64,000 nucleotides of DNA from Acidobacteriota bacterium (GTDB lineage Bacteria > Acidobacteriota > Holophagae > Thermotomaculales > Thermotomaculaceae). The notes beneath the pieces were generated by a model. That model was not told the DNA's origin. It did not search any database and saw nothing but the letters and a program-made list of their open reading frames with translations. The position numbers were made by a program, and so were the translations under genes. The stretch is taken from NCBI GenBank assembly GCA_036736005.1, contig DAINNF010000002.1, forward strand, positions 193 through 64,192, in the 5' to 3' direction. How positions within the stretch are numbered: the first letter of the stretch is position 1; each line of letters starts with the position of its first letter. Shown here piece by piece: positions 4,909-27,275 of the stretch.

Positions 4909-6320
4909 TCAAACCGGCTACGAAGATTGTGTGCACCATCGGTCCGGCCTGTGCTGACGCAGAGGTCATGTCCGCGATGATTGAGGCAGGGATGAGTATG
5001 GCCCGTCTCAACTGTTCCCATGGAACCCACGAGCAGATGGCGGAGTATGCGGATTTTGTCCGTGAGGCCTCCCGCCGGACAGGTGTTCCAGTGGGATTGA
5101 TGGCCGACCTGCAGGGCCCGAAGATCCGCGTGAGAGATCTGACCCGTCCCGGGATCGAGTTGACGGACGGCACCACGATCTGGATTGACCAGAACCCGGC
5201 TCCGGGAGATGAACGCAGAATTTCCGTCGACTATTCGGGTTTTGTGGGTGATGTCAAGATTGGCGACCCCGTTCTGATAGATGATGGCACCATTCGACTG
5301 GAGGTAACGGAGAAAGTATCGGATGCGGTCCGGTGTCGGGTCGTTCACGGCGGGGAACTGAAGCCCCATAAGGGCGTCAATCTGCCCGGGGTTGAATTGT
5401 CCATTCCATCTTTCACGAAAAAAGACGCAGCCGATCTGGATGCGGCGTTGCGTATCGGTGTGGACTTCGTGGCATTGTCTTTTGTTCGTCACCCGGACGA
5501 TATTCGTGAGCTTCGCCGACGAATCGGTGAATCCGATGTCCGTATTATCGCAAAGATTGAGCGACCGGAAGCATTGTCCCATATCGCGTCGATCATTCGT
5601 GAATCGGATGGCGTGATGGTGGCCCGGGGCGATCTGGGCATGGAGATTCCGTTGCAGCAGGTACCGGGCTGGCAGAAGCGGATCCTGCAACTGGCGTCGG
5701 AAGCCGGGCGATTTGCCATTACGGCCACCCAGATGCTGGATTCTATGGTAAAAGCGCCCACCCCGACGCGGGCGGAAGTTTCGGATGTGGCAAATGCGAT
5801 TCTGGATGGTACCGACGCGACCATGCTGTCCGGTGAGACGGCGGTGGGCGATTTCCCGGTGGAAACGGTAGCGACCATGGCGTCGGTGGCAAAGGAGGCT
5901 GAACAACTGGTTCGTCCGCTGGAACTGAAACACACGGAGATGCGGGACGGGGAACATGCAACCGACCGGGCGATAGCGGCGTCGGCTTCCATGATTGCCG
6001 CCATGGTCAGTGCCCGTTGCATTGCGGCGTTCACCGAATCCGGTTTTACGGCCCTGCTGATATCCAAGCAACGTCCGGGCGTCCCGATATTCGGCATTAC
6101 GCCTCATGAACGGGTCGCACGACAGTTGACCGCCTATCGGGGCGTTACGCCCATGCTGGCCGATCCGGAGGGCAGCACGGACCGGCTGTTTCAACTGGTT
6201 GCCGATAACCTTCGTTCAGAAGGACGTGTACGCAAAGGGGATCGTGTTGTGGTGACGATGGGGTTGCCGTTTGCCAGAAGAGGGACCACAAACCTGCTCC
6301 ATGTGATGGAGATCGAATGA
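4905..6320 (+). CDS. pyk: Pyruvate kinase
   Basis: TKIVCTIGPA...MARLNCSHG...KIERPEAL...VMVARGDLGMEIP...ATQMLDSM. The TTG start overlaps the upstream stop (TTGA). Confidence 0.95.
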   Translation: MIKPATKIVCTIGPACADAEVMSAMIEAGMSMARLNCSHGTHEQMAEYADFVREASRRTGVPVGLMADLQGPKIRVRDLTRPGIELTDGTTIWIDQNPAPGDERRISVDYSGFVGDVKIGDPVLIDDGTIRLEVTEKVSDAVRCRVVHGGELKPHKGVNLPGVELSIPSFTKKDAADLDAALRIGVDFVALSFVRHPDDIRELRRRIGESDVRIIAKIERPEALSHIASIIRESDGVMVARGDLGMEIPLQQVPGWQKRILQLASEAGRFAITATQMLDSMVKAPTPTRAEVSDVANAILDGTDATMLSGETAVGDFPVETVATMASVAKEAEQLVRPLELKHTEMRDGEHATDRAIAASASMIAAMVSARCIAAFTESGFTALLISKQRPGVPIFGITPHERVARQLTAYRGVTPMLADPEGSTDRLFQLVADNLRSEGRVRKGDRVVVTMGLPFARRGTTNLLHVMEIE

Positions 6321-7756
6321 TGACGTTCGTGCTGCTGGCGATTTCCGCTGTGCTGCTTGCGGCTTCGTTTGTCCCGTGGTTGTTCGGATTACCGGGTCTG
6401 CTTTTTCTGGTGCCCGCGATTGCGGCAGCCCGCCGGGAGTTGAGCTGGCAGCGACGGGTCCTGTGGGGTCTGATCTGGGGTGTCCTGATCTTCACGGCAA
6501 ACTTTTATTGGACCATTCATACCATGCACATTTATGGCCGGATGAGCATCTGGCTGTGCATACTCCTCTTCATACCGCTGGCCATTTATCAGATGGCGCC
6601 GTTCATTATCTGGTTTGTGTTCTACCGGAGCATGGAAAGTCGTCACCGGTTTCTGCCGGTCCTGGCGTTGCCGCTGCTGATCCGTCTGTTTCCCCTCGTG
6701 TTTCCGTATACCCTGGCTTCCGCCATATCGGTGAATCCCTTTCTGGTGCAGAGCGCGAGCATATGGGGCGAATGGGGACTGGATGCCATGATGGTACTGG
6801 CAGGGATATTGTTACTGGATTTCCGGCGGGAACGTTCTCGTCGGAACCTGGTCCGGATTGCTGTTCTGGCAGGTGTTTTCGTGGTCACCGGTATCGGAGG
6901 AATGGTTCAGTGGACACAGCGGAAAACAGATACCGTCAAATGCGTGGTTCTCCAACCCTGTGTACGGGACCTGGACAGCGAAGATGTCAAACGGAACCGG
7001 TTCTTCGGGACTGTCCGGGAAGCAAAAGGTCGTTGTACGGACGCTCTCGTAATTCTGCCGGAGTCGGCTGTGCCGGACTCCATTTCGGGGCGGGAGGATT
7101 TCTTTGATGTCATGTCGGAAATCCGTTCGGTACTGGACGCGCGGGCCATTCTGTTTAACGCGGTGGTATACCGGAACAACCGCTTGACCAATTCCGAATT
7201 CCTGCTCACCGAAAACGGGGGGCTGGAACAGTATGACAAACACCGGCTGATCCTGTTCGGGGAGCGCTTCCCGTTTTACAATCTCTTTCGGAAGCTGCCC
7301 ATTTACGCTGCAAATTTCGCAAATTTCTCTCCCGGACCCGGAGCCCGTTCCATGTCCACAGCGGATATGAAGCTGGGTACACCCATCTGTCTGGAAGGGA
7401 TTTATGAGGAATATGTGGCGGCATTGTCCGGCGGGAGTCACATGCTGATCAATCCGACTGATGATGAATGGTTCAACGGTCTTCATGCCACCTGGCTTCA
7501 TTTCAGCCAGGTTCGGATCAAGACGATTGCGAACCGGCGATGGCTGGTCCGGGCCGCCAATACGGGATACTCCGTGATTGTGGATGACCGGGGCCGCATT
7601 GTGGCGGACATTCCCGTTGAAACACCCGGTGTACTGGAGGCGGAGGTTCCTCAGATGGGCGGATCAACTGTTTTTCAGATCGTTGCGCCATATATGCGGT
7701 ACCTGTTCCTGGGTGGCGCGCTGCTGTTGTGGTGGCTGGGAAGACGGCGTTCATGA
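6317..7756 (+). CDS. lnt: Apolipoprotein N-acyltransferase
   Basis: Multi-TM N-terminus plus a C-N hydrolase domain (VILPESAVP...HRLILFGERFP...GTPICLEGIYEEY). ATGA overlap with pyk. Confidence 0.85.
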   Translation: MMTFVLLAISAVLLAASFVPWLFGLPGLLFLVPAIAAARRELSWQRRVLWGLIWGVLIFTANFYWTIHTMHIYGRMSIWLCILLFIPLAIYQMAPFIIWFVFYRSMESRHRFLPVLALPLLIRLFPLVFPYTLASAISVNPFLVQSASIWGEWGLDAMMVLAGILLLDFRRERSRRNLVRIAVLAGVFVVTGIGGMVQWTQRKTDTVKCVVLQPCVRDLDSEDVKRNRFFGTVREAKGRCTDALVILPESAVPDSISGREDFFDVMSEIRSVLDARAILFNAVVYRNNRLTNSEFLLTENGGLEQYDKHRLILFGERFPFYNLFRKLPIYAANFANFSPGPGARSMSTADMKLGTPICLEGIYEEYVAALSGGSHMLINPTDDEWFNGLHATWLHFSQVRIKTIANRRWLVRAANTGYSVIVDDRGRIVADIPVETPGVLEAEVPQMGGSTVFQIVAPYMRYLFLGGALLLWWLGRRRS

Positions 7757-8835
7757 GGCAACGGGCACTGGTTGCGGGCGCCCGGTTTCCGGATACCGAT
7801 CCTGCCACGCTGGAAGATCATCTCGATGAACTGGTCCGATTGCTCGACACACTGGGTGTGACGGCGGAGGGAATGGCCGTTCAGCGGATGGGACAGCCCC
7901 GCGCAGGAACATACTTCGGGCCCGGTTTCATCCGTTCAGAGATTGACCGGTTCCAGCCGGACCTGCTGGTGGCGGAGGCCAACCTTTCCCCGGCACAGGC
8001 ACGGAACCTGGAGGAAATTGCGGGCGTCCCGGTGATGGACCGCACCCAGGTGATTCTGGAGATTTTTGACCGCCATGCAAGAACCAAAGAGGCGCGCGTT
8101 CAGGTTGAGCTGGCGCAGTTGCGATACCGGAGAACCGGGTTGCGGCGCACCGATGACCAACTGGCCCAACAGGTCGGGGCCATCGGGGTGCGGGGCGGTA
8201 AAGGGGAAAAACGTATCGAACTGGACCGGCGGACGCTGGACAAGCGAATCGCCACCCTGAAGCGGGAGTTGAGAAAGATCGAAAAACAGCGCGAATTGAC
8301 GCTGAAGAAGCGGCGGGAGTCGTTCAGCGTGGCGTTGGTCGGGTATACCAATGCGGGCAAGTCCACCCTGCTGAACCGGTTGACTCGGGAACAGGTCCGC
8401 TCGGGCAACCGGCTTTTCGTGACACTGGACACCACCAGCCGGAAGTGGTTCCTGGCACCGGATGACTGGACCGTTCTTTCGGATACGGTGGGATTCATCC
8501 GCAACCTGCCTCATCTGCTGGTTGCCAGTTTCCGGTCCACCTTCGGGGTTGCGGATGCAGCTTCTGTGTTGATTCATGTTGCCGATCTGACCGCCGCGGA
8601 CATGCAGGAGCAGATTGATGTGGTACAGCAGACACTGCAGGAGATGGAACTGGACGATCGCCCCTTGCTGCTGGTATTCAACAAGTCGGATGCGGTGGAG
8701 CCTCGGACCGTGCAGCGTTTTCTCAACCTGTATCCCGGGTCGATTGCGGTATCGGCTCTGTCCGGAAGCGGTTTGGACGAACTGAAGACGCGCATATCGG
8801 AATGGAAATCCCGTTTTCCGGCCGTTCGAAGTTAG
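7753..8835 (+). CDS. hflX: GTPase HflX
   Basis: HflX N-domain followed by G motifs (VALVGYTNAGKSTLLNRLT, DTVGF, NKSD). I prefer the ATG at 7753 (ATGA overlap with the lnt stop) over the track start at 7729. Confidence 0.9.
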   Translation: MRQRALVAGARFPDTDPATLEDHLDELVRLLDTLGVTAEGMAVQRMGQPRAGTYFGPGFIRSEIDRFQPDLLVAEANLSPAQARNLEEIAGVPVMDRTQVILEIFDRHARTKEARVQVELAQLRYRRTGLRRTDDQLAQQVGAIGVRGGKGEKRIELDRRTLDKRIATLKRELRKIEKQRELTLKKRRESFSVALVGYTNAGKSTLLNRLTREQVRSGNRLFVTLDTTSRKWFLAPDDWTVLSDTVGFIRNLPHLLVASFRSTFGVADAASVLIHVADLTAADMQEQIDVVQQTLQEMELDDRPLLLVFNKSDAVEPRTVQRFLNLYPGSIAVSALSGSGLDELKTRISEWKSRFPAVRS

Positions 8836-14152: not shown

Positions 14153-15619
14153 ATGAATCGCGTTCAGTTTGCGGGTCGAATCGCCGGTCCTGTTCTCGCG
14201 TGCGTCATGTTGTTTCTCCCGGTTCCGGATGGACTTTCCGTTGCCGGCTGGCGTACAGCCATCGTTGCACTGTGGATGGCTGTCTGGTGGATGACCGAGG
14301 CGTTGCCCCTGGCCGCCACCTCCCTTCTGCCGCTGGTACTGTTCCCGTTCCTGGGCATTTTGCCCATGCGGCAGGCGGCGGCACCCTACGCTCACCATCT
14401 GATCTTTCTGTTTATGGGCGGGTTTCTCATTGCCCGCTCCATGGAACGGTGGGACCTGCACCGCCGGATTGCGCTGGGTACCGTACGTATGTTCGGATTC
14501 AGACCCCGGCGGATGGTACTGGGATTCATGGTGGCAACAGCATTTCTGTCCATGTGGGTGAGCAATACGGCAACCGCCATTATGATGGTTCCCATCGGGA
14601 TGGCCGTGCTGGGTCAGGGGGAAACGCGGCGCCGGAACGGTTCACTGGGTGTGGTCCTGATGCTGGGTATTGCATATTCAGCATCCATCGGCGGCATGGC
14701 CACAATCATCGGTACGCCGCCCAACACGGTGATGGTGGCCATGGTGGACAAACTGTTCGGCCAGACCATTACGTTTCTTCAGTGGATGCTGATCGGCGTG
14801 CCCCTCTCTCTGCTGATGCTGGTGACGACCTGGTGGTTGCTGACGCGGGTTCAGTTTCCGCTTCAGGACAGCGGCGTGATTGCCGGAGGGGATGCGCTGC
14901 TCAATGAACAGTCATCAATGGGGCCCATGACCCCCGCACAGAAGCGGATCGTGGCGGTTGGCGTGCTGGTGGCGTGTGGATGGATTTTCCGCGGCCTGGT
15001 GCACCTGGATTTTCTCAAGGGAGTGGAAGATGCCACCATCGCCATGACCGGTGCCATTCTCCTGTTTCTGATTCCTTCCGGAGATGAACGGGGCAGTTTC
15101 CTGTTGGATTGGGACACGGCCCGTACCATCCCGTGGGGGGTTATGCTCCTGTTCGGCGGCGGTCTGTCGCTGGCAGGTGCCTTCATGAAGAGCGGTCTCG
15201 CTGCGTGGATTGCAACGAAACTGTCCGTGCTTCAGGCGGCCGGCCCCGAGGTACTGATCATAGCGGTTGTGTTGCTGACCCTCTCTCTTACTGAATTGAC
15301 ATCCAACACGGCAACGGCCACCCTCTTTATTCCGCTGGTGGCCGGTCTGGGCATTGCAGTGGGTTCCCATCCGTACGTGATTATGTCCGGTACGGCCATT
15401 GCGGCTTCCTTTGCATTCATGTTGCCTGTGGCAACCCCGCCCAATGCGGTGGTTTTCGGAAGCGGAGAGGTCACCATCGGTCAGATGGTCCGGGCAGGCA
15501 TTCTGCTCAATCTGATCGGTGCCGTGATCAATGTTCTGGTGATCCTCTATCTGTTGCCCCTGGTGTGGGGGCTGGATCTCATGCAGGTACCGGATTGGGC
15601 CAGGATGATTGGAGGATAA
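14153..15619 (+). CDS. SLC13/DASS-family anion:sodium symporter
   Basis: 488 aa polytopic protein with the duplicated SNTAT(A) hairpin motifs (WVSNTATAIMM and ELTSNTATATLFIP). Confidence 0.85.
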   Translation: MNRVQFAGRIAGPVLACVMLFLPVPDGLSVAGWRTAIVALWMAVWWMTEALPLAATSLLPLVLFPFLGILPMRQAAAPYAHHLIFLFMGGFLIARSMERWDLHRRIALGTVRMFGFRPRRMVLGFMVATAFLSMWVSNTATAIMMVPIGMAVLGQGETRRRNGSLGVVLMLGIAYSASIGGMATIIGTPPNTVMVAMVDKLFGQTITFLQWMLIGVPLSLLMLVTTWWLLTRVQFPLQDSGVIAGGDALLNEQSSMGPMTPAQKRIVAVGVLVACGWIFRGLVHLDFLKGVEDATIAMTGAILLFLIPSGDERGSFLLDWDTARTIPWGVMLLFGGGLSLAGAFMKSGLAAWIATKLSVLQAAGPEVLIIAVVLLTLSLTELTSNTATATLFIPLVAGLGIAVGSHPYVIMSGTAIAASFAFMLPVATPPNAVVFGSGEVTIGQMVRAGILLNLIGAVINVLVILYLLPLVWGLDLMQVPDWARMIGG

Positions 15620-15624
15620 GACAA

Positions 15625-17844
15625 ATGCGTGGAGACACGCGCCGTCGTGCACTGCTGTTTCTCATGGTGTCGGTCGGTATGTCGGCATTGACGGTTCAAA
15701 CCGTATTGTTGCGGGAATTGATGGTGGTGAGCTGGGGGAATGAACTGGTGTTCGGCATCGGGTTTTCCTTCTGGCTCATCGGCGTTTTCTGCGGTGCCCT
15801 TTCCGGTTCGGTTATGCTCCGTTCCCGGGAGATTCCGTTCCGAACCACGTTGATGGTCATTTCCGCTTTGCCTGTTCTGGGTATTGTGGGTACGGCATGG
15901 ATCCGTTGCCTGCATCTGACGGGGGGGACACCGGCCGGTCAACTGCCGTCATACGGTGTGGTAGCAGCCGTTGCCGGACCGGCGTTTCTGATTGCTGCGG
16001 TACCGGTTGGATTGACATTTCCTTTTCTGGTGGCCTTGCTGCAGCAACAGTCTGATGGAGCGTCCCGTGAGTCTGCAACACCGGTGTATGTCTCCGAAGC
16101 AATCGGGTCATGCCTGATGGCGCTTCTACTCAGCATGGTCCTGCTGGGTCATGTCTCTTCCATGACACTGATCGCCGGCACCGGTTGCCTGGTGATTCCG
16201 GTTACGGTGTTTTCACCTTATCGAACGGACCGGACTGTGTTTGCGGGAATGATCCTGTTCGCTGCAGTTCTGATCGTGCTGCCGTTGCTGCTGGGAAGAT
16301 GGAGCGAGGACAGGCGATGGCAATCGGTATCGGCAGGGGATCGGATTACCGAGCGGGAAACGCCCTACCAGTTGTTGTCACTGGGCAAGCTGGGCGGTCA
16401 ATATCAACTGATGTCCAATGGCCGGATACAGGACGTATTTCCCGACCGGGTTTCGGAACGGCTCATGGTTGCGGGGCTCCATGCCCAGTGCCCGGATGCC
16501 CGACGCATCCTGATTGTCGGGCCTGTTCCCCAGTCTCTGGAGACCAACATGAGGTCGGCGTTTTCGGCTGAGCTGATTTCCGTGGTCCTTGACGGACAGA
16601 TGAACCGGATGATGGCATCCGGAAGTGATTCAGTGAACGGGGGTGACGATGCCGCCTGCCGGCGCATCACCGGCGATGTGCGTGCCATGCTGCGTGAGCC
16701 TCAGGCGCGCGGATTCGATGACCTGGACCTGGTTGTTCTGCACGGGTCGGAACCGACGGGGACGCTGGGCAATCGACTGTTGACCGTTGAATTCATGCGA
16801 CACCTGTCGACCGCCATGAGCCGGAGCGGGGTACTGGCGGTTTCTCTGCCCGACACCGTGAACTATACGGCGGGAGACATCGCCGGTGTCGGATCTCTCA
16901 TCGCATCAACGGTACAAACCGCATTTCCCCACGTTCTGATCGTTCCCGGTACGCCCCACTGGTTGTATGCCTCCCGTTCCGGCCGGAAACTGGTGACGGA
17001 ACAGGAGGAAATTGTCCGCCGCATCCGAATGCTGGGACGGGACTGGCGCCGGGAAGCGCTGATGGCAGGGGGCGATTATCAACCGGACCGAATCAAACAG
17101 ATAAATGAATCAATGGTCGGTCGCGAGGAACAAACCAATCGGGATGACAGACCGGTTCTGCTCAGCCGATATGCACGGCTGACGGGATGGTATACAGGGA
17201 GCGGGATGTCTGTTCTGCTGGATATGCTGAACCGTCTGCCGTGGATATGGATGATACTGCCGCTGATGCTGATGGGGATTGCACTGTCGGGCGGAAAGCG
17301 GGTCCGGTTGTACATGCCCGTTGGAATCCTGGGGTTTACTGCTATGTCCGTCGTCCTGCTGCTGGTCTACATGTTTCAGGTTCAGGCGGGCTCGGTTTAC
17401 CGACAGATCGCGCTTCTCAGCGGGCTGTTCATGGCAGGCCTTCCGATGGGTGCATGGATGATCCGCCGGCGGCAGCGAAACGAAACGGAACATCCGTTTC
17501 TTTCCCTTCGTACCCCGCTACTGCTGATGATGACCCTGTCGGCGGTGCTCTTGATGGTCTGGCATTCCGGAAACACGAACAGCATCCTGCTTCTCATCAT
17601 CAGTGCCTGTTGCGGGATTGTGTCCGGAACGGTATTCCCCGTTGCGGTGCACCATGTCCGGCAGCTGGAAGAGAACGTTGCCGTGGGATCGGGGCTGGTG
17701 GATGCGTTCGATCATCTGGGGGGCGCAGTGGGAGCATTGCTGGTTGCGTCCTTTCTGATCCCGGGGCTGGGCGTCAGTGGTTCGCTGTTACTGATGATCG
17801 CCGTGTCGGGTATTGGACTGATTGCCGCCGGGGGCCATCGTTGA
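15625..17844 (+). CDS. Polytopic membrane protein with a central spermidine-synthase-like domain whose SAM-binding glycine motif is degenerate
   Basis: TM-rich N- and C-terminal thirds. The central domain has RILIVGPVPQSL where GxGxG is expected, plus LDLVVLHGSEPTGTLGNRLLTVEFM. ATG at 15625 lies 5 nt after the upstream stop. Confidence 0.6.
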   Translation: MRGDTRRRALLFLMVSVGMSALTVQTVLLRELMVVSWGNELVFGIGFSFWLIGVFCGALSGSVMLRSREIPFRTTLMVISALPVLGIVGTAWIRCLHLTGGTPAGQLPSYGVVAAVAGPAFLIAAVPVGLTFPFLVALLQQQSDGASRESATPVYVSEAIGSCLMALLLSMVLLGHVSSMTLIAGTGCLVIPVTVFSPYRTDRTVFAGMILFAAVLIVLPLLLGRWSEDRRWQSVSAGDRITERETPYQLLSLGKLGGQYQLMSNGRIQDVFPDRVSERLMVAGLHAQCPDARRILIVGPVPQSLETNMRSAFSAELISVVLDGQMNRMMASGSDSVNGGDDAACRRITGDVRAMLREPQARGFDDLDLVVLHGSEPTGTLGNRLLTVEFMRHLSTAMSRSGVLAVSLPDTVNYTAGDIAGVGSLIASTVQTAFPHVLIVPGTPHWLYASRSGRKLVTEQEEIVRRIRMLGRDWRREALMAGGDYQPDRIKQINESMVGREEQTNRDDRPVLLSRYARLTGWYTGSGMSVLLDMLNRLPWIWMILPLMLMGIALSGGKRVRLYMPVGILGFTAMSVVLLLVYMFQVQAGSVYRQIALLSGLFMAGLPMGAWMIRRRQRNETEHPFLSLRTPLLLMMTLSAVLLMVWHSGNTNSILLLIISACCGIVSGTVFPVAVHHVRQLEENVAVGSGLVDAFDHLGGAVGALLVASFLIPGLGVSGSLLLMIAVSGIGLIAAGGHR

Positions 17845-17893: not shown

Positions 17894-19408
17894 ATGAAAT
17901 GGTTTGGTTCACTGATCTGTCTGATCGGGGCCGTGGCTGCCTTGGCCGGTCCGGATGCCGGGACGGTCCGTCCCTATCTTCAGACAGGTACCTGGTATCC
18001 GGCTGATCCCGTTGTGTTGACCACCCAACTGGACAGGATGATTGCCGGTGATGCGGACCATGCGGACGCTCTCATCCGGGGGATGGTGGTTCCCCATGCC
18101 GGACTTGCCTATTCCGGACCCACGGCGGGTCGTGCATACCGGTTGCTTCGGGGTCAACAGGTTGACCGGGTGATCATTCTGGGAGTGGCCCATCGGAAAC
18201 GAATGCGGGGTGCCTGCCTGTCTACATTTGAATTCAACGAAACGCCGCTGGGACGCATCCGGGTGGACCGTGCTGTTGTGACCCGTCTGTCCGGTCAACC
18301 CGGGTTTGAACTGGATAACAATGCCATGGTGATGGAACATTCGATTGAAAATCAGTTGCCTTTTCTCCAACGCGTGCTGGGGAACCGGGATTACGAGATC
18401 GTTCCGATTCTGGTGGGACATCTGGACGCTTCGCTGCAGCGACAACTGGTGTCCGCGATCCGACCGTTTGTGACGGAGCGTACGGTGGTTATCGCCAGTT
18501 CCGATCTGACCCATTACGGGAAGAATTACGGATTCACCCCGTTTGAAACAGATGTGCCGGAACAGATCATGAAACTGGACATGGGACTGGTGGATGCATT
18601 GATGCGGAAAGACTCGACAGCCCTGTTGGAATACCGGCGAAAGACCGGAATTACCGCATGCGGAATCATGCCCATGGCAATTCTCTGTGATCTGATGAAG
18701 CCGCTTCCGGTAACGGGCCGTCTTGTCGGATACAGCCGTTCCGGTGATCGTGACGGCAATTATCAACTGAGTGTCAGTTATGGGGCAGTCGTATTCGAAG
18801 CGGAGGCGACGGGAGACAAAATGAACAGGGAAAACAAAGGTGCTTTGGAGGACCTGACCGGGGAGGAGCAGACCGTTCTGCTGAAACTGGCACGGGAAAC
18901 GCTGAACCGGGAATTGCGGGGCGAGAAGATGGAAATCAATCCCGCGGATTATCCGGAGAAACTGCAGGAACCCCGCAGTGTGTTTGTGACCCTCCGTGAG
19001 GAAGGCCGCTTGCGGGGGTGCATCGGAAATCTGGGGGACCCGGCACCGCTTGTCCAGAGCGTGCGGGACTATGCCATCAAGGCGGCACTGGAAGATCCGC
19101 GATTTCCGCCGGTTTCTTTCGAAGAACTGCAGAAGATCAGTATTGAGATTTCCGTGATGACACCCCTCAAAGAGATTCCCCACTACCGTCTGATCCGGCT
19201 CGGAGTGGACGGTGTCGTGATTCGAAACGGGTATCGCGGGGCGGTTTATCTTCCCCAGGTGGCGACCGAAACCGGATGGAGTCTGGACACGTTTCTGACC
19301 AATCTGTGCCGTAAAGCCGGTCTTCCGGATGATGCATACCGGTTGCCGGACACCCGGTTCCAGGTGTTCCAGGCGGACGTTTTCCAGGAGAAATCGGACA
19401 AGCCATGA
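17894..19408 (+). CDS. Fusion of AmmeMemoRadiSam system protein B (Memo-like) and protein A (AMMECR1), with an N-terminal signal peptide
   Basis: MKWFGSLICLIGAVAALAG signal. Memo motifs VPHAGLAYSG, ILGVAHR, SSDLTHYG. AMMECR1 motifs RGCIGNLG, LEDPRFPPV, YLPQVATETGW. Confidence 0.85.
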   Translation: MKWFGSLICLIGAVAALAGPDAGTVRPYLQTGTWYPADPVVLTTQLDRMIAGDADHADALIRGMVVPHAGLAYSGPTAGRAYRLLRGQQVDRVIILGVAHRKRMRGACLSTFEFNETPLGRIRVDRAVVTRLSGQPGFELDNNAMVMEHSIENQLPFLQRVLGNRDYEIVPILVGHLDASLQRQLVSAIRPFVTERTVVIASSDLTHYGKNYGFTPFETDVPEQIMKLDMGLVDALMRKDSTALLEYRRKTGITACGIMPMAILCDLMKPLPVTGRLVGYSRSGDRDGNYQLSVSYGAVVFEAEATGDKMNRENKGALEDLTGEEQTVLLKLARETLNRELRGEKMEINPADYPEKLQEPRSVFVTLREEGRLRGCIGNLGDPAPLVQSVRDYAIKAALEDPRFPPVSFEELQKISIEISVMTPLKEIPHYRLIRLGVDGVVIRNGYRGAVYLPQVATETGWSLDTFLTNLCRKAGLPDDAYRLPDTRFQVFQADVFQEKSDKP

Positions 19409-20385
19409 ACAGCCGGCGCGCTTTTCTGGGACGCCTGGCGGGCGGTATGGCCGGGCTGGCATTGTCCCGTTTCTTTCCACCATTGCTGGCGGCAGCCGGT
19501 GAACAGGAAAGCCGGGTAGTGGAGGTTCGGGACGAGGGCTTGATACGGGTCGGTCACGATGTTGATGTTCAGACAGCATTCCGTCTGTTGAACAGCGGCA
19601 TGAAACGACTCACCGGCAGAGATTCTGCGGAAACGGCCTGGCGTTCGCTGTTTCACAGGCAGGACAAAGTGGGGATCAAACTGAGCTGTCTGCCCGGTTT
19701 GCCGCTTTCGTCCTGCAGAGGTGTGGTGATGGCCATTGTGGATGGGCTGCGTCTCGCGGGTGTCCCGGCAGAGAGGATCATCATCTGGGAGCGGACAGGA
19801 CGGGAACTGGAAGCGGCCGGCTTCAAACTCTCCCGAAAAGGATTGCGCGTGATGGGAACAGACATGTTCACCGACGGTGGCTATTCCCGTGATATCGAGT
19901 TTGCGGGGAGCGTGGGCACCTGTTTCAGCATGATCATGGAAGAGGTCACCGCCTTGATCAATGTCCCCGTGCTGAAAGATCACGATATTGCGGGTTTGTC
20001 TGCAGGCATGAAGAACTTCTATGGTGCGATCTACAACCCCAACAAGTATCACGGGAACGGCTGCAGCCCTTACGTGGCGGAATTGTCGACCCACCGGTTT
20101 ATCCGGGACCGGCTGCGGCTCATCGTGCTGGATGCCACCCGGATTCAGCTGCAGAACGGTCCGGCATTTGATTCCCGATATGCGGATGAGTACGGTGGAC
20201 TGATCATCGGAACCGATCCGGTGGCGGTGGACACCGTGGGATTGAAACTTCTGGAGTCTGAGCGCCAGGTCCGGGAACTGAAGACATTGCGGGAAACAGG
20301 ACGCAGCCCCCGCTATCTGCCGGAGGCGGAGAAGTTGAAACTGGGACACATGAAGGAGACCTGGATTGACCACATCACCCTTTGA
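19405..20385 (+). CDS. DUF362-domain protein with a twin-arginine signal
   Basis: MNSRRAFLGRLAGGMAGLAL matches the Tat motif. DUF362 core VGIKLSC...VPVLKDHDIAGLSAGMKNFYG. ATGA overlap with the upstream gene. Confidence 0.75.
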   Translation: MNSRRAFLGRLAGGMAGLALSRFFPPLLAAAGEQESRVVEVRDEGLIRVGHDVDVQTAFRLLNSGMKRLTGRDSAETAWRSLFHRQDKVGIKLSCLPGLPLSSCRGVVMAIVDGLRLAGVPAERIIIWERTGRELEAAGFKLSRKGLRVMGTDMFTDGGYSRDIEFAGSVGTCFSMIMEEVTALINVPVLKDHDIAGLSAGMKNFYGAIYNPNKYHGNGCSPYVAELSTHRFIRDRLRLIVLDATRIQLQNGPAFDSRYADEYGGLIIGTDPVAVDTVGLKLLESERQVRELKTLRETGRSPRYLPEAEKLKLGHMKETWIDHITL

Positions 20386-21481
20386 CCGGTGTACAAGGCG
20401 CACGTTTATCCGGGGGACGGCATCCATGGCTCTGGGACTGGCCTGTGCGGGACCGTTACTGGCCGGTGAAACATGGGATGTGGAAGCGTCCTGCTATGAA
20501 AAACTGGAGGACCGGAAGATCAAATGCAAGCTCTGTCCCCATGAATGCCAGGTGGCGGACCGGGAACGGGGGACATGCGGTGTACGGGAGAACCGCAACG
20601 GAGTCTATCATACGCTGGTGTACGGTCAGATCTGTGCTGCACATGTGGATCCCATTGAAAAGAAGCCGTTGTATCATTACAAACCCGGTGTGCGGGCGTT
20701 TTCCATCGCCGCGCCCGGCTGCAATTTCATCTGTAAATTCTGTCAGAACTGGGAAATTTCGCAGAAACGGCCGGAACAGTTGAAAACGGTCAAAACCTCG
20801 CCTGAAGCGCTTGTCCGGCAGGTGCAGCAGCAGCGCGTTCCGGTAATGGCCCACACCTATACGGAGCCGGTTGTATTCTTTGAGTTCATGCGGGACTGTG
20901 CCCGGATCGGACAATCCAGGAATATCCCGAATGTCATGATTTCAAACGGTTTCATTCAGCAGGAACCGATGAAAGAGCTCTGCCGGTATCTGGGAGCAGT
21001 GAAAATCGATCTGAAAGCGTTCACGGAATCATTTTACCGGGATGTGTGTGGCGGCAGTCTCAAACCGGTGCTGGAAACGCTGAAAACGGTGAAGGAAGCG
21101 GGCGTCTGGTTGGAGATTGTGGTTCTGGTAATCCCCACGTTGAACGACGATCCGGATGAGATCCGTCAGATGAGTCGATGGATTGTCCAGGAACTGGGCC
21201 CGGATGTGCCCCTGCACTTCACCCGTTACCACCCTACGTTCATGATGCAGAACATTCCGCCCACCCCGCCGGAGACATTGTTCCGATGCTGGGACATTGC
21301 AAAAGCGCAGGGGCTGAACTATGTGTACCTCGGAAACATGTTGTCCGACAAAGAGAACACGATGTGCCCGGCCTGTGGTCACCTGTTGATTGAGCGGGCC
21401 GGTTTTGTGGCGGATAAGTCGGGGATGCGGGGCAACTGCTGCCGTAATTGCGGAGCGGTGATTCCCGGTGTGTTCAGTTGA
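20366..21481 (+). CDS. AmmeMemoRadiSam system radical SAM enzyme with a twin-arginine signal
   Basis: CTRRTFIRGTASMALGLACAGPLLAG is Tat-like. CKLCPHECQVADRERGTCGVREN. Radical SAM CNFICKFCQNW. C-terminal CPACG...CCRNCG. Confidence 0.85.
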   Translation: MTTSPFDRCTRRTFIRGTASMALGLACAGPLLAGETWDVEASCYEKLEDRKIKCKLCPHECQVADRERGTCGVRENRNGVYHTLVYGQICAAHVDPIEKKPLYHYKPGVRAFSIAAPGCNFICKFCQNWEISQKRPEQLKTVKTSPEALVRQVQQQRVPVMAHTYTEPVVFFEFMRDCARIGQSRNIPNVMISNGFIQQEPMKELCRYLGAVKIDLKAFTESFYRDVCGGSLKPVLETLKTVKEAGVWLEIVVLVIPTLNDDPDEIRQMSRWIVQELGPDVPLHFTRYHPTFMMQNIPPTPPETLFRCWDIAKAQGLNYVYLGNMLSDKENTMCPACGHLLIERAGFVADKSGMRGNCCRNCGAVIPGVFS

Positions 21482-21500: not shown

Positions 21501-24500
21501 TCAGGTCTGACGCAGGGCATCTGCGATGGCACGGGTCAACGTTGCCGAGGTAAAGGGTTTTTCCACAAACCGTACGGAATGGTCTGCCGGTCCGCGGTTG
21601 GCCATGATTTCTTCACTGTATCCGGACATGAAAACGGCGGGCAATGCCGCTATCCGTTTCTTCAATTCCTGGTACAGGGCGGGGCCGTTCATGTCCGGCA
21701 TCACGACGTCAGTCAGCAGCAGATCAAACGGCTCCGATTCGGTTTCAACATGTTTGATGGCCTCGAGTGGATTGGCGATATCGGTGACCCGGTAGCCGAA
21801 GTCTTCCAGCAGTGAGCGGGCCAGGTTGCGTACATCGTTATTGTCTTCAACCAGCAGGATGCGCTCACCGTTTCCCGGCATCGGTTTCAGTGCGGGAAGC
21901 TCTTCATCCCGGACCGGAGTCGCAGTTGACGGAATATACGTGCGGAAAATGGCGCCCATTCCCGGTTCACTGTATACACGGATGGTTCCCTTGTGCTGTT
22001 TCACGATGCCGTACACAACCGCCAGTCCCAATCCTGTCCCCCGGCCGCGCTCTTTTGTGGTGAAAAACGGTTCGAATATTCGATTAACGGTAGCCGTTTC
22101 CATCCCTCTGCCGTTGTCCTCCACGGTCAGAACTGCGTATGTACCCGGAGCCAGCGCGGGATCCGGAACGTCTTCTTTCGAGAAGGACCGTACATCCGTG
22201 CTGATGCCGATCCGGCCGTCATTATCCAGTGCGTCCCGGGCGTTGATCACGAAATTGATGATGATCTGCTCCAGTTGTGTACGGTCGGCGTCCACCCAGA
22301 TGGGATCTTTTGCACAGGAAATATTGATGGCAATACTGGCGGGAATGGTGCGACGGATCATGGATTCCATTTCCCGGATCAATCCATTGAGATCCACCGT
22401 CTCCATCCGTAACACCTGTTTCCGGCTGTAGGCCAGCATCTGCTGGACCAGTTTTCGGGCGGAGTCGGCCGCCCGTTGAATCATATGAAGCCGTGTCTTC
22501 ATTTCATCCGGCAGATCCGGCGTATCGAGCAACAATTCCACGTAGCCCAGTACCGGTGTCAGGAGGTTGTTGAAATCATGGGCGATACCACCCGCAAGCT
22601 GACCCACCGACTCCAGACGCTGTGTCTGCACCAGTTTCTCTTCCAGCTCTTTCTGGTGGGTCATATCCTCAATGATGCCCTCATAACAGACGATGGAGCC
22701 ATTTTCATCTGTAATGGTCCGGTTATGGTTCCTGACCCAGATGCGTTTCCCGTCCAGACGAAGCAACTGAAATTCATCCAGTACACCCTCCGGATTGGCG
22801 TCCAGGAGTTTCAGATGCCGATCCCGCGCTTCTTTATCCGGATAGAAATCCAGAACCTGCCGGTGCAACAGATCATCCACGTTCTCCGCCCCGAGAATCT
22901 CCGCCAGTGTGGGGTTGGCAAAAATGAACCGGCTGTCGGGTGTTGTGCGATAGAGTCCAAGCGGCAGCTGGTCTGCCAGTTCCCGGTATCGGGATTCACT
23001 TTCCCGAAGCGCCTGTTCCGCCTTCTTTCGGGCGATCACGGCGGCGATCTGGTTGGAGGCGGTTTCCAGGAGACTCAGGTGTTCTTCCGTAAACCGGTTG
23101 GGATCGTCGTAGCTTTGAAGAAGCATCACGGCAAACGGTTTGTCATCGAAACGAAGGGGAATTGCCATGCATTGCAGGATCGGTTGGCCGATGATTCTGG
23201 CTTCCCCGTTCTTGACCATCTGCTCAAGAGCTTCCCTGCCAATCAGAACCGCTTTTCCGGTTTGTCGGACATGTTCCGTGAGGGTGCCTGCAGCGGCGTA
23301 TTGAAGATTGGTAAAATCTTCGCGGCCGGTGGCATAAACGCCGTTAAACGTCCGGGTTTCGGGGTCATATTCGTTCACATAGAACTCCGAGGCGTCCATG
23401 ACACCCTGAAGCACATCCTGAATACGCCGGTACAGGTCTGTGGTATTCGTGGCCCGGCCGGCTTCTTCGGAAATCCGGAGAATGAGGTTGCGGACCTGGT
23501 CGGCTTCTTTTCTGGCGGAGATTTCAAAAATGAACCCCTCGATCGCTTCGGCTTTGCCTTCCCGGTCATAAACAGCGACACCCTGTTCCCACACCCACCG
23601 GGCTTGCCCCTGGCGGTCTTTGATCCGATATTCCATCTGAAACGGCTTTCCGTCTGCAATCGCGGTTTGAACGGCTTCCCACACCCGCTGTCGGTCTGAT
23701 GGATGGATCAATTCTGCATACGATGCCGCCTTGTTGCCGATCAAATCCTCCGGTGCATAGCCGGTCAGGTCCCGGCATCCCGGACTCACCATCATCATGG
23801 TCCAGTCCCGGTCATTCAGGCAGCGGTAGGCAATGCCCGGCAGATTCTCCAGCAGCGTGGTCCACAGCCGCTGCTGTTCTTCAAATGCCTGCCGGGATTG
23901 GACCAGTTCATGGTGATGACGGGTGCGTTGGTGACGCCAGTACAGCAGGATCAGTGCCGCGGACAGTATCACAAGGGTTCCGGTCAGGACGGCCACATAC
24001 CAGTACCAGGACTCTACCGGGCGGACAACCTCATCCAGATCGATTTTGGTTATCAGAAACCAGGGTGTATCCGGCACCGGTGCGACGTAGGCAAGTACGT
24101 AGTGGCCGCGGTAATCGGTGCCTTCAACCGGTCCAACGGTCCCGGAGACGGCCATTACAGCAGGGAGCTGGATTCTGTTTCGGGGCACACGGAGTGTCAG
24201 GGCACTCTCCGGCTGATGACGGAGATCATTCAGGAACACGATATTGTCTCCCTCGGTCCGGACCAGCAGAGATTCTGCTGTCTCACTGGGTACCGACCAT
24301 TTGAGGAAGAGGGGAAACAGGTCCCGGCTGACATTTTCAATGGCCACCAGATACAGCGGTGTTTCCAACTGATCCTGCAAAACAGGTGCGATGATCGCGA
24401 TATGAACGCCGTATTGGTCATTTCTGTGAATGGGGCTGAACCAGGCACCTTTTTCCGGACTCAAATCGTGCAGAATCGCATCCATTTCAGTGGATTCCAG

Positions 24501-24896
24501 ATGGGTATCCTCGAACGCGCCAAAACGTATTTTCTGTTCCTGGTCCACAATGACCAGATTCCTGAAATTTTCTGTCAGGCAAATTGATTTCAGCCAGGCC
24601 CTGATGGCTTCTTCCGAACCGGTGTCTCCGGACCCGGCCTGTTTCAATTGGCTCTTCAAAAAGGGGGACATGCGCAACAGTTCCATGGTCTGGATGTGCT
24701 GTTCCCGCCACTCCCGGATCTGTCGGGTTTTCAGGCCATTCACGGCTTCCAGTTGATTGTACTGGTCCCGGATAACCGTAGCGGTCTGATGACGGTAGAT
24801 GAGAGCGGCGATGGCGGACAATCCCACGGTAACGAATACAAAAATGAGCAGCAGCACCCACGGAACCCGTACCGGATGTTCAGAACGATTTTTCAT
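21501..24896 (-). CDS. Hybrid sensor histidine kinase (double-Cache-like periplasmic domain, PAS, GAF, PAS, HisKA, HATPase, REC)
   Basis: TM, ~280-aa extracytoplasmic domain, TM. H-box [12 protein letters not shown]-boxes DNGRGM and GTGLGLAVVYG. C-terminal REC ([13 protein letters not shown]). Confidence 0.9.
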   Translation of the reverse strand: MKNRSEHPVRVPWVLLLIFVFVTVGLSAIAALIYRHQTATVIRDQYNQLEAVNGLKTRQIREWREQHIQTMELLRMSPFLKSQLKQAGSGDTGSEEAIRAWLKSICLTENFRNLVIVDQEQKIRFGAFEDTHLESTEMDAILHDLSPEKGAWFSPIHRNDQYGVHIAIIAPVLQDQLETPLYLVAIENVSRDLFPLFLKWSVPSETAESLLVRTEGDNIVFLNDLRHQPESALTLRVPRNRIQLPAVMAVSGTVGPVEGTDYRGHYVLAYVAPVPDTPWFLITKIDLDEVVRPVESWYWYVAVLTGTLVILSAALILLYWRHQRTRHHHELVQSRQAFEEQQRLWTTLLENLPGIAYRCLNDRDWTMMMVSPGCRDLTGYAPEDLIGNKAASYAELIHPSDRQRVWEAVQTAIADGKPFQMEYRIKDRQGQARWVWEQGVAVYDREGKAEAIEGFIFEISARKEADQVRNLILRISEEAGRATNTTDLYRRIQDVLQGVMDASEFYVNEYDPETRTFNGVYATGREDFTNLQYAAAGTLTEHVRQTGKAVLIGREALEQMVKNGEARIIGQPILQCMAIPLRFDDKPFAVMLLQSYDDPNRFTEEHLSLLETASNQIAAVIARKKAEQALRESESRYRELADQLPLGLYRTTPDSRFIFANPTLAEILGAENVDDLLHRQVLDFYPDKEARDRHLKLLDANPEGVLDEFQLLRLDGKRIWVRNHNRTITDENGSIVCYEGIIEDMTHQKELEEKLVQTQRLESVGQLAGGIAHDFNNLLTPVLGYVELLLDTPDLPDEMKTRLHMIQRAADSARKLVQQMLAYSRKQVLRMETVDLNGLIREMESMIRRTIPASIAINISCAKDPIWVDADRTQLEQIIINFVINARDALDNDGRIGISTDVRSFSKEDVPDPALAPGTYAVLTVEDNGRGMETATVNRIFEPFFTTKERGRGTGLGLAVVYGIVKQHKGTIRVYSEPGMGAIFRTYIPSTATPVRDEELPALKPMPGNGERILLVEDNNDVRNLARSLLEDFGYRVTDIANPLEAIKHVETESEPFDLLLTDVVMPDMNGPALYQELKKRIAALPAVFMSGYSEEIMANRGPADHSVRFVEKPFTSATLTRAIADALRQT

Positions 24897-24974: not shown

Positions 24975-27275
24975 TCAGGAATCGCCCTTTGGGGATTTCT
25001 GTTCCAGGATGTAGCGGACGGCTTTCAGTAGTTCATCCGGTCCGAACGGTTTGGGCAGCAGTGCCAGTTGGTCCTCGTTGAGAACCTCGGCCTGGAGGGA
25101 ATCGTCCGTATGACCGCTGGTGAACAGCACGCAAATGTGCGGCCAGTGAGCGCGAATTTTCCTGTACAGTTGCTGTCCGCCCATATTGGGCATGATCACA
25201 TCCAGGATGGCCAGATCGGTCTGCCGGGCTTCACGATCCAGAATGGAAAGGGCTTCTGTCCCATCGGAGGCGGAAAGGACGGTGTAACCGGCACGGCGCA
25301 GAATGGATATCCCCGTTTCCCGAACAGCGGGGTCGTCCTCCACAAGCAGAATCTGTTCGGCACCCCTGCTTTTCTGTGGGAGCGTATCGGAGGAAGGGAC
25401 CGCTTCGGTTGATGATCCGGTACCGGAGGCTGGCAGATAGACTTGAAACAGGGTTCCGGCATCCACTTCACTCTTGACGGTAATGGTTCCCCGGTGCTGC
25501 CGGATAATGCCGTACACGGTGGCAAGGCCCATTCCGGTCCCTTTCCCCGGACCCTTGGTGGTGAAGAACGGTTCAAAGATATGTTCCAGGACATCCGGAG
25601 ACATGCCGCAACCGTTGTCCCGTACCGAAAGAAGAACGTAATTACCGGGAACCAGTCCTTCCAGTTGCAGAACTTCTTTCGATGTAAGTGTCACCGGCCG
25701 GCAATCAATGGCGATTTCCCCACCCTCCGGCATGGCGTCCCGTGCGTTGATGCAGAGGTTCAACAACACCTGGTTGATTTGTCCCGGATCTGCCAGTACG
25801 GGTTGCAGGTCAGGTCGAGACGCATAGCTGACTTTGACATTTTCCGGGATGGTCCTTCGGATCATCTGCAATGTCTCCTGGATCTGTTTGTCCAGACTCA
25901 GCTCCCGACGATCCAGGTGTTGCCGCCGACCGAAAGCCAGCAGTTGTCGCGTCAACTCGGCTGACCGTTTGGCGGCATGGCGAATTTCCTGCAAGTTTGG
26001 TGTGATATCGGCGCCCCGTTTATAGTTCAGTTCGGCAAATTCGGTGCCCCCGATGATAACTGTCAGCATATTGTTGAAATCATGTGCGATACCGCCTGCA
26101 AGTTGACCGACCGCTTCCATTTTGTGCGACTGGCGGATTTCCTCTTCCATCCGGATTCGATTCGTGATGTCTTCCAGTGTCTGGATGACCTGCCGGACCT
26201 CTCCACTGGAATCCCGAATCGGGCTGGCTACGATACGGCAGGTCATTTGCCGCCCGTTTTCCAGATGGAAAATCTGGATATCTTCATGGCGTTGGCCATC
26301 CTGCGCCGCAGCGGTGACCAGACATCCGGGACAGGGAGAATCTGCTTCTTCGCGGTTGTAAATCTTCTGGCATTTGAGTGGATTCTGGGGGTCCATGTCC
26401 GGGAACCATGTCTGTGCGGTTCTGTTTGCCTCCAGGATGGTGCAATGCGTGTCCATCAGAACAACACCCACGTTCAGATTGTCGATCATGGTCTTGAACT
26501 TGGTTTCCGATTCGGCCAGCCGTTTTCGTGCCTTTTCAATTTCGGTGGTGTCCCGACACGCATAGAGATAGGATGCACCCTGAATGTTCACGCACTGGGC
26601 GTTGATCAGGAGCACTTTCTCCTGACCATGTTTGTCGTGGATGGTGCAACTGTAGTTGGAAACCGGGCTGTCTATGGTCGGTAACGGGCATTTCTCTGCC
26701 TGTTGTCCCATCAGGGCCCTCAGTGAGCCCTTTTCCATGGCTTCTTCCGCTGTCCAGCCGAATGCGTTGGAGAAGTTTTTGCATACAAAGGTGAATGTTC
26801 CGTCTCGTTTTGTCATGAACACGGCATCACTGATACTGTTCAAGGTCAGCCGATACAATTCTTCGCTTTGTTTGAGTTGATATTCATACTCGTTTCGTTG
26901 CAGGGCATATCGGATCGCACGAACCAGGGCGTCCGTGTCAAACTGTCCTTTGGCCAGGTAATCCTGGGCCCCCCGGCGCAGGAACTCCATTGCATATTCC
27001 GGATCGCCCACACCGGTCAGAACGATAATGGGGATGTCCGGGTGGGCCGCCTGGATACCGGTCAGCGAGTCCATGCCGTCCGAGTCCGGCAGATTCAGGT
27101 CCAGCAGAACGGCATCAAAGGACCCGTCATCCAGTTGTTGCACCCCCTCGGAAAGACGTTCCGCATGGACGAGTTCAAACCCGGAGATTTCGGACAGCAT
27201 TTCCCGGATCAGGCGGGCGTCCCCGGGGTTGTCTTCAATCAATAAAACCCTGGTTGATGCGGGATCGTGGTTCAT
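24975..27275 (-). CDS. Hybrid histidine kinase, REC-PAS-PAS-HisKA-HATPase-REC (cassette 2, B-type)
   Basis: N-terminal REC ([10 protein letters not shown]...[12 protein letters not shown]). H-box [12 protein letters not shown]-terminal REC ([13 protein letters not shown]). ATGA overlap with the upstream RR gene. Confidence 0.9.

Follow-up and report, generated by a model that had tools for sequence, protein, structure and literature searches.

Can a radical SAM enzyme do its work outside the cytoplasm? Enzymes of this kind are treated as strictly cytoplasmic, since they need S-adenosylmethionine (SAM), a low-potential electron donor and Fe-S cluster assembly, and none of them is known to be exported. 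The question is raised by a locus in a 64,000-nucleotide stretch of DNA from an Acidobacteriota bacterium (contig DAINNF010000002.1, hereafter the window), in which three overlapping genes encode an AmmeMemoRadiSam system, that is, the Memo, AMMECR1 and radical SAM proteins, together with a DUF362 protein. According to an earlier note made from the sequence alone, every component of this system carries an export signal. The analysis described below suggests that this is a widespread and apparently undescribed version of AmmeMemoRadiSam, and that the locus probably encodes a truly extracytoplasmic, periplasm-facing system. Family assignments, the conservation of the signals and their covariation, the start codon, the sets of partners and the folds come directly from the analysis; export itself, the topology, the substrate and the way in which SAM and electrons are provided are inferred.

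A cluster of overlapping genes with predicted export signals

The AmmeMemoRadiSam genes form a single cluster of contiguous and overlapping genes (17894-21481), which comprises three open reading frames (ORFs). Their predicted signals belong to the twin-arginine translocation (Tat) or to the general secretory (Sec) type:

17894-19408, + strand: Memo (protein B) fused to AMMECR1 (protein A), 504 amino acids, Sec-type N-terminus (TIGR04336, TIGR04335, PF01875, PF01871)
17894-17947, + strand: Sec-type signal peptide MKWFGSLICLIGAVAALA, with a possible signal peptidase I site between A-L-A and G, read from the translation
19405-20385, + strand: DUF362 protein, 326 amino acids, twin-arginine motif, predicted LarA-like fold (PF04015); its start overlaps the upstream stop (ATGA)
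20366-21481, + strand: AmmeMemoRadiSam radical SAM enzyme, 371 amino acids from a conserved TTG start, N-terminal Tat-type signal, 11 Cys (TIGR04337)

Direct translation reproduces these ORFs and the N-termini on which the earlier note relied. The overlaps that it reported are also present, namely an ATGA start/stop overlap at 19405-19408 between the Memo-AMMECR1 and DUF362 genes, and 20 nucleotides (nt) shared by the DUF362 and radical SAM genes (20366-20385). Its family assignments agree with the NCBIfam and Pfam matches for Memo, AMMECR1, DUF362 and radical SAM, and the three AmmeMemoRadiSam models (TIGR04335, TIGR04336 and TIGR04337) all score above cut-off in the cluster.

In the fusion protein, the Memo part matches TIGR04336 with 201.1 bits (cut-off 26) over residues 29-301, as well as PF01875, and the AMMECR1 part matches TIGR04335 with 170 bits (cut-off 99) over residues 328-497, as well as PF01871. 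The N-terminus ahead of the Memo profile match reads MK-WFGSLICLIGAVAAL-A(-3)-L-A(-1) followed by G. By inspection, Lys2 forms its N-terminal (n-) region; a core of 15 hydrophobic residues follows, and positions -3 and -1 are occupied by small residues. The proposal of a B+A fusion starting with a Sec-type signal or anchor is thus sustained, and orthologous fusions with Sec- or lipoprotein-type N-termini are found beside signal-bearing radical SAM enzymes in about 25 other genomes. A second, stand-alone AMMECR1 protein of 186 amino acids (4348-4908, + strand; TIGR04335, 167.8 bits) has no signal peptide, so that this genome has a cytoplasmic AMMECR1 paralog beside the predicted exported fusion. 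Its gene lies directly upstream of those for pyruvate kinase (4905-6320), Lnt (6317-7756) and HflX (7729-8835).

The start codon and the twin-arginine signal of the radical SAM enzyme

The radical SAM enzyme scores 349.9 bits against TIGR04337 (cut-off 220), in a match that begins at residue 44 and leaves a 43-residue N-terminal extension. It also matches PF04055 (69 bits) with the CX3CX2C cluster motif, and it keeps all 11 conserved cysteines of the family, distributed among three metal-site motifs (C54/57/61/71, C119/123/126 and C334/337/359/362). These cysteines are retained in every signal class described below, whether Tat-type, Sec-type or signal-less. The features relevant to its start and its signal are the following:

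20352-20359, + strand: Shine-Dalgarno sequence GAAGGAGA, 7 nt upstream of the TTG start at 20366; its GGAGG is invariant in the relatives L082, L083 and L084
20393-20467, + strand: Tat signal core T10-R11-R12-T-F-I-R16, then an 18-residue uncharged hydrophobic (h-) region (G17 to G34), from direct reading and alignment
20720-20743, + strand: radical SAM cluster motif C119-x3-C123-x2-C126 (GCNFICKFC), conserved in 81/81 loci

In the public annotation, this protein starts at an internal ATG (20426; 351 amino acids), so that the RR motif is hidden. The internal Met had already been singled out as an alternative to be checked, and its support is not better than that of TTG 20366. Indeed, the upstream start is favored by the spacing of the Shine-Dalgarno sequence, by the invariance of both TTG and GGAGG in the three close relatives (proteins 82-90% identical), by a reading frame that stays open in all three, and by the two Arg codons of the RR motif, which vary synonymously among them (AGG CGC versus CGA CGG). 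The codon corresponding to ATG 20426, by contrast, is GTG or ACG in these relatives. Judging from the synonymous codon differences and the conserved TTG start, the RR motif of the enzyme is under purifying selection. The same truncation is seen elsewhere: public gene calls cut the twin-arginine n-region at an internal ATG or GTG (350-351 amino acids) in the window (20366-20428), in L082 (2206-2268) and in L084. Start truncation probably accounts for most of the apparently signal-less close homologs (332-351 amino acids), and public annotation probably conceals the signal in this way in many genomes.

The conservation of the signal was assessed in the 120 best homologs (57-90% identity), which come from Acidobacteriota, Aminicenantes, Chrysiogenia and metagenome-assembled genomes (MAGs). 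RR, then x-hydrophobic and at least 12 uncharged residues, was found in 110/120, ahead of the conserved sequence with which the domain starts (EAxYYxKL...CxLCPHxC), and the ten homologs that fail this test are mostly shorter gene calls. Such frequencies, here and in the DUF362 homologs below, far exceed chance. In a 36-sequence alignment R11, R12 and F14 are invariant. The twin-arginine signal read earlier, T-R-R-T-F-I-R followed by 18 uncharged residues, is therefore not a peculiarity of the window: orthologs keep the extension and its motif.

Two variations were observed in this part of the protein. A conserved CxxC (for example TTCALCSLPL) lies within the Tat h-region of many Acidobacteriota and Aminicenantes homologs, among them P0011, P0012, P0015, P0021, P0029 and P0031, and such a CxxC-bearing signal may have a second role, for instance in metal binding or proofreading. 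In a Tat-type sub-clade (L033, L044, L047, L057, L074 and L079), CxxCH stands in place of the CxLCPHxC motif, with an insertion after it. A heme c site was considered for this CxxCH and finds no support, as it aligns with the family's own CxxCPHxC cluster motif.

The DUF362 protein as a conserved partner

The twin-arginine motif of the DUF362 protein, S3-R4-R5-A-F-L-G (residues 3-9, with R4R5 encoded at 19414-19419), stands as previously described and is conserved, with RR in 114/120 homologs and RR plus an uncharged stretch in 109/120. The hydrophobic region said to follow it is weak, being interrupted by Arg22, with only 11 uncharged residues. Four DUF362 proteins keep RR without passing the h-region test, namely that of the window and the three closest to it (P0121-P0124), and the interruption is restricted to this lineage. 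The view of this gene as an insertion between the system genes did not hold, since DUF362 adjoins the radical SAM gene in 14/40 Tat-type loci versus 0/41 others (p = 1e-5). On the basis of this association, DUF362 is a conserved Tat-motif partner of the radical SAM enzyme.

The only Pfam match of this protein is PF04015, and it does not belong to the LarA_N (DUF2088) sequence family. The fold search alone was informative, as PDB sequence and profile searches gave no meaningful match, LarA included. In its AlphaFold2 (AF2) model (predicted local distance difference test, pLDDT, 89.8), the top Foldseek PDB matches are all LarA or LarA-like nickel-pincer enzymes (7s91, 6d6z, 9eia and 5huq; probability 1.0, E 1e-5 to 1e-3, TM-score 0.45-0.48). 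This predicted fold agrees with the common Pfam clan, CL0471, to which DUF362 and LarA_N (DUF2088) are assigned (PMC11770544). K191, H193, K203, K214 and H216 are invariant in the sequence alignment and are possible candidates for a cofactor-tethering Lys and for Ni-binding or catalytic His residues, and K-D-H-D and N-P-N-K-x-H motifs are conserved. On these grounds, and according to the model, DUF362 may bind a cofactor. A role as an Fe-S electron carrier was rejected, because with a single invariant cysteine it is unlikely to hold an Fe-S cluster.

Covariation of export signals among related loci

The distribution of the signals was surveyed in 80 loci that represent more than 15 phyla, each from a different GTDB species, and that make 81 with the window. 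Genes were classified from their ORFs with phmmer, and several antisense "shadow" ORF families produced by BLAST clustering were discarded. Among the N-termini of the 81 radical SAM enzymes, about 40 are Tat-type (RR or the KR/RK variants, also RR-x-F-S/N/T, assigned by eye and with a looser rule), 15 have a Sec-type signal or anchor without RR, and 26 have no extension. The Sec-type enzymes occur in Omnitrophota, Planctomycetota, Verrucomicrobiota, Chlamydiae and others, and the extension-less enzymes in Methanosarcinales, several Desulfobacterota, Bacteroidales and others.

The signal of the enzyme covaries with that of its partners. Where Memo and AMMECR1 are encoded in the locus of a signal-bearing radical SAM enzyme, they are fused and bear a Sec or lipoprotein signal in 25/25 cases. 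In four signal-less radical SAM loci (L040, L071, L073 and L075), Memo-AMMECR1 is signal-less as well, and L031 and L051 are exceptions to this covariation. The A+B fusion, earlier taken for a distinguishing trait, is real and is not specific to the exported form, for signal-less fusions occur in Bacteroidales (L040, L071 and L075). In a neighbour-joining tree based on the catalytic domains only, the signal-bearing enzymes constitute one large clade, with 4 Fitch changes versus a shuffled mean of 22. Given this clade, the form predicted to be exported is an old and maintained subfamily.

The signal-less Bacteroidales enzymes mentioned above (L040, L071, L073 and L075) nest in the signal-bearing clade, beside the Bacteroidales KR-type Tat-like L067 and L077. 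This position suggests a secondary loss of export. Fusions of radical SAM, AMMECR1 and Memo in this order, of about 1000-1150 amino acids and devoid of signals, were also observed (P0297, P0307, P0345, P0351, P0353, P0356, P0360, P0362, P0375 and P0387). These put the three activities in one cytoplasmic polypeptide, unlike the predicted exported, multi-protein form.

A polytopic membrane protein with a SpeE-like domain

The gene upstream of the cluster encodes an additional candidate partner:

15565-17844, + strand: polytopic membrane protein with a SpeE-fold domain, 759 amino acids from GTG 15565 (hydropathy, fold search, synteny)

The public annotation starts it at ATG 15625 (739 amino acids). 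Hydropathy points to about 14 transmembrane (TM) segments, arranged as 6 TM, TM7, a domain of about 310 amino acids with a spermidine synthase fold, TM8 and 6 TM. The two 6-TM blocks, N- and C-terminal, share homology according to hhalign (probability 98.8%, E 5e-17). When the AF2 model (pLDDT 79) was compared with the PDB by Foldseek, the top 50 matches were all spermidine synthases or aminopropyltransferases, with a TM-score on the target of 0.62-0.69 over about 280-300 aligned columns for the SpeE-fold domain. Homologs of this protein are found in 33/55 signal-bearing versus 2/26 signal-less loci (L031 and L051; Fisher p = 7e-6). Judged by this linkage, it is a conserved partner of the signal-bearing radical SAM enzymes, and the system is larger than earlier described.

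The side of the membrane that the SpeE-fold domain faces was predicted from the lysine and arginine residues (K/R) of the short loops of 32 homologs, which number 164 in 151 loops on the side of the soluble domain and 467 in 182 loops on the opposite side. According to the positive-inside rule, the domain lies on the K/R-poor, periplasmic side in 31/32 homologs, and it is therefore predicted to face the periplasm, a placement that the 6+1/1+6 arrangement of the TM segments also predicts. PF01564 is passed by 8/8 homologs from other phyla. The window protein itself has no Pfam match and reaches 66.6 bits against PRK03612 (cut-off 472). A further homolog of 1263 amino acids, P0396, combines the SpeE-TM protein with Fer4_5 (NapH-like) and FMN_bind modules, a fusion by which the membrane partner itself is tied to trans-membrane electron transfer.

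A Sec-type sister lineage and domain fusions

A second membrane protein, of the DsbD_2 family (PF13386), neighbours the radical SAM gene in 13/15 Sec-type loci (L025, L026, L028, L030, L034, L037, L039, L041, L048, L053, L064, L072 and L078), 1/40 Tat-type loci and 0/26 signal-less loci (p = 4e-12). The sole Tat-type locus concerned is L024, whose Tat call is doubtful. This distribution is expected if the proteins truly cross the membrane. By analogy, Tat cargo would cross folded with its clusters, and Sec cargo would arrive unfolded, its eleven cysteines free, and would depend on a CcdA-like thiol reductant in the manner of apocytochromes c.

Domain fusions were surveyed in 150 representatives clustered at 50% identity. 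In several of them, a single N-terminal signal or anchor precedes an extracytoplasmic-type domain and then the radical SAM domain, with no TM segment between; P0255 and P0257 have FMN_bind in this position, P0250 has CBM11 and P0248 a beta-propeller. The radical SAM enzyme is fused to DsbD_2 in P0244 and P0273, and to DsbD_2, FMN_bind or NapH-like Fer4_5 modules in P0252, P0260 and P0270. FMN_bind and NapH-like proteins are extracytosolic, trans-membrane electron-transfer devices (PMC8238504). In P0256 and P0263, Memo, AMMECR1 and radical SAM are found in one polypeptide behind an N-terminal hydrophobic segment.

A possible mechanism outside the cytoplasm

In the extracytoplasmic reading, the radical SAM enzyme would fold and receive its Fe-S clusters in the cytoplasm, and would then cross the inner membrane through Tat. 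The LarA-fold DUF362 protein, probably loaded in the cytoplasm with an organic or metal cofactor, would take the same route, and the cofactor-free Memo-AMMECR1 fusion would cross unfolded through Sec. These routes fit the cargo, as the Fe-S and cofactor-type proteins carry Tat motifs and Memo-AMMECR1 a Sec signal, which supports this reading. Lnt and an AsmA-like protein, also encoded in the window, are signs of a diderm cell, which would have a periplasm. The proteins would act jointly at the outer face of the inner membrane, beside the 14-TM protein, which resembles the major facilitator superfamily (MFS) and whose predicted periplasmic SpeE-fold domain is of the type that binds SAM or decarboxylated SAM (dcSAM). 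The system would modify a periplasmic or membrane-embedded substrate.

SAM and electrons might be supplied in two ways. They could be carried across by the enzyme itself for one or a few turnovers, for example in maturing the Memo-AMMECR1 fusion, whose amounts may be matched to those of the enzyme by translational coupling. Alternatively, they could be resupplied through the membrane partner. Tentatively, and as a possibility short of a probable one, the MFS-like protein would deliver SAM or a derivative via its periplasmic SpeE-fold domain, electrons would come from lineage-specific modules (DUF362 here; DsbD_2, FMN_bind and NapH-like elsewhere), and the enzyme, brought there by Tat or, in the sister lineage, by Sec, would turn over in the periplasm. 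If this were true, it would be the first extracytoplasmic radical SAM pathway and would point to a lipid or an envelope component as the substrate of Memo and AMMECR1, two universally conserved proteins.

Several points weigh against an extracytoplasmic site. The localisation calls come from motifs, hydropathy and K/R counts obtained with scripts. We know of nothing in the periplasm that would provide SAM or a low-potential reductant, nor of a mechanism for Fe-S insertion outside the cytoplasm, which the 11-cysteine Sec-type relatives would require. By inspection, a clear AxA cleavage site is absent from the radical SAM signal, which may therefore persist as an anchor, and the h-region of the DUF362 protein is broken as described above. 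The SpeE-like domain of the window has lost its glycine-rich nucleotide loop, and only some of its acidic residues remain (family consensus LLIGGGAGG...VELD...DGRRFL...NLPDP versus LIVGPVPQSL...VVLD...TGDVRAML...HGSEP in the window). In L032 and L035, from Syntrophobacterales and Thermodesulfobacteriota MAGs, a Tat-type radical SAM enzyme stands beside a separate, signal-less AMMECR1, an arrangement that may reflect Tat hitch-hiking or a mixed architecture. Finally, the clade structure implies that the partner-association statistics reflect few independent events, a case of phylogenetic confounding.

Alternative explanations

The alternative that survives best, although we consider it unlikely, is that the radical chemistry takes place in the cytoplasm before export. 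The enzyme would use cytoplasmic SAM and flavodoxin or ferredoxin on a partner, for example DUF362 or its cofactor, and would then leave through Tat in a folded complex, as a scaffold or a spent passenger. The problem of SAM and reductant vanishes in this case, and Tat does carry folded complexes. The DUF362 protein is a suitable candidate, being a potential Tat substrate that is translationally coupled to the enzyme and is predicted to share a fold that serves to hold a complex tethered cofactor, and the signal-less AMMECR1 of L032 and L035 is compatible with hitch-hiking. The HXS system offers a precedent for cytoplasmic radical SAM maturation followed by Tat export of the product (PMC13128918). 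DUF362, however, is present in only 14/40 Tat-type loci. Moreover, the Memo-AMMECR1 fusion has a Sec signal in about 25 loci; crossing unfolded and separately, it could meet the radical SAM enzyme only outside. The enzymes of the sister lineage, with their Sec-type signal and DsbD_2 partner, could not act before export, and the FMN_bind, NapH-like and DsbD_2 fusions suggest that electrons are supplied across the membrane.

It appears distinctly unlikely that the N-termini are mere membrane tethers or remnant Tat signals that hold the catalytic domains on the cytoplasmic face, beside the membrane protein and with access to cytoplasmic SAM. Remnant Tat motifs do occur on cytoplasm-facing enzymes such as NarG, and the lack of an obvious AxA site in the radical SAM signal is what a tether would show. 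In P0263, where the order is TM, radical SAM, Memo and AMMECR1, basic residues after the TM helix suggest an N-out/C-in orientation, and a cytoplasmic site would suit a SpeE domain that binds SAM or dcSAM. Against this stands the full Tat consensus (S/T-RR-x-F-L/I-K), which is kept across phyla beyond what hydrophobicity alone would demand, with basic residues ahead of the h-region that predict N-in/C-out. The signals of Memo-AMMECR1 are classical cleavable Sec or lipoprotein signals, and by the positive-inside rule the SpeE-fold domain lies outside in all but one of the homologs counted. The occurrence of DsbD_2 with Sec-type and not with Tat-type enzymes is hard to explain for cytoplasmic proteins, and relatives exist in which the radical SAM domain lies behind CBM11 and FMN_bind domains.

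Dual localisation seems very improbable. In such a scheme, TTG 20366 would give the exported form and a downstream start (ATG 20426, GTG in relatives) a cytoplasmic, active one. An in-frame ATG or GTG does lie at or beside codon 21 in all four close relatives and was chosen by gene callers (350-351 amino acids), a G-rich stretch is located about 9 nt upstream of ATG 20426, and the signal-less AMMECR1 paralog (4348-4908) could serve a cytoplasmic form. But the codon is not kept as ATG (GTG or ACG in relatives), a Met21 form would open with the bare hydrophobic h-region, distant homologs have no conserved start after the RR motif, and the window contains neither a signal-less Memo nor a second radical SAM enzyme. 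An artefact of over-extended ORF calls and chance RR motifs, to which only the internal ATG of the public annotation lends support, is effectively refuted by the conserved extension, RR motif, Shine-Dalgarno sequence and TTG, by the covarying signals and by the distinct signal-bearing clade.

Comparison with known systems

The extracytoplasmic system proposed here shares with the parent AmmeMemoRadiSam system (TIGR04335, TIGR04336 and TIGR04337) the clustering of all three families and a radical SAM enzyme with every conserved cysteine. It differs by a predicted export signal on every component, by the fusion of A and B, by a radical SAM clade of its own, and by extra partners, namely the Tat-motif DUF362 protein and the 14-TM SpeE-fold protein. 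We know of no biochemical function established for the parent system. The genomic contexts of Memo, AMMECR1 and radical SAM were reportedly analysed by comparative genomics in Burroughs et al. 2019 (cited in PMC7159879). In the literature searched, neither an exported radical SAM enzyme nor signals in AmmeMemoRadiSam were found to be described; Burroughs et al. 2019 may contain an earlier mention.

By analogy, the system would be most like the Tat-exported cofactor enzymes, such as the reductive dehalogenases (RdhA) with their NapH/NosR-like partner PceC, the hydrogenase small subunits and the DMSO-reductase family. These are cofactor-loaded, bear a twin-arginine signal, act outside the cytoplasm and have a dedicated membrane partner, features that are predicted from sequence for the window. 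In addition, relatives of its radical SAM enzyme are fused to NapH-like and FMN_bind modules of the PceC/NosR type. RdhA-type enzymes, however, need only electrons from the membrane, whereas a radical SAM enzyme also needs SAM and a very low-potential electron. The HXS antiphage system, in which an effector matured by a radical SAM enzyme is exported by Tat (PMC13128918), likewise unites a radical SAM enzyme with a Tat signal and acts in the periplasm; there, it is the substrate that bears the Tat signal, and the radical SAM enzyme is cytoplasmic, whereas in the window the signal is on the radical SAM enzyme itself.

For the individual proteins, the closest solved radical SAM fold by sequence is that of the pyruvate formate-lyase activating enzyme (PDB 3c8f, E 3e-8). 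NCBIfam models of glycyl-radical activases give only weak matches, far below their cut-offs, and these activases are cytoplasmic, have no signal and lack the N-terminal and C-terminal 4-Cys motifs of the window's radical SAM family. LarA resembles the DUF362 protein in predicted fold (probability 1.0, E about 1e-5, TM-score 0.45-0.48), but DUF362 belongs to another Pfam family, is about 100 residues shorter and has a Tat motif. With the membrane-anchored spermidine synthases (PRK03612/COG4262, "fused MFS/spermidine synthase"), the membrane protein shares the SpeE fold, an N-terminal TM block and, in 8/8 homologs, PF01564. It differs from them in that two homologous 6-TM repeats flank its SpeE domain, for which a periplasmic position is predicted, in its degenerate nucleotide loop and a score far below the cut-off, and in its linkage to AmmeMemoRadiSam.

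A clade conserved in multiple phyla, with signals on both the enzyme and its partners, challenges the strictly cytoplasmic view of radical SAM enzymes. It also bears on the old question of the role of Memo and AMMECR1, whose conservation extends from bacteria to humans and which have links to disease. A version that is exported and associated with a polytopic membrane protein would narrow the candidate substrates to molecules that the two sides of the membrane have in common, for instance lipids, isoprenoids and envelope components.

Neighbouring genes

Between 13900 and 21700, a search for promoters and terminators found about as many as chance would give and did not delimit the operon. A DASS transporter upstream (14153-15619) was considered as a further component and rejected, being syntenic in the nearest relative (L084) only and counted in 0/80 genomes. 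Two large hybrid PAS/GAF histidine kinase/response-regulator proteins, encoded on the minus strand at 21501-24896 and 24975-27275, converge on the end of the cluster. They were likewise rejected as components, as their linkage is inconsistent among loci. The first of these kinases (21501-24896) is syntenic in the near relative L084, and similar kinases are found in L020 and L046, inconsistently elsewhere.

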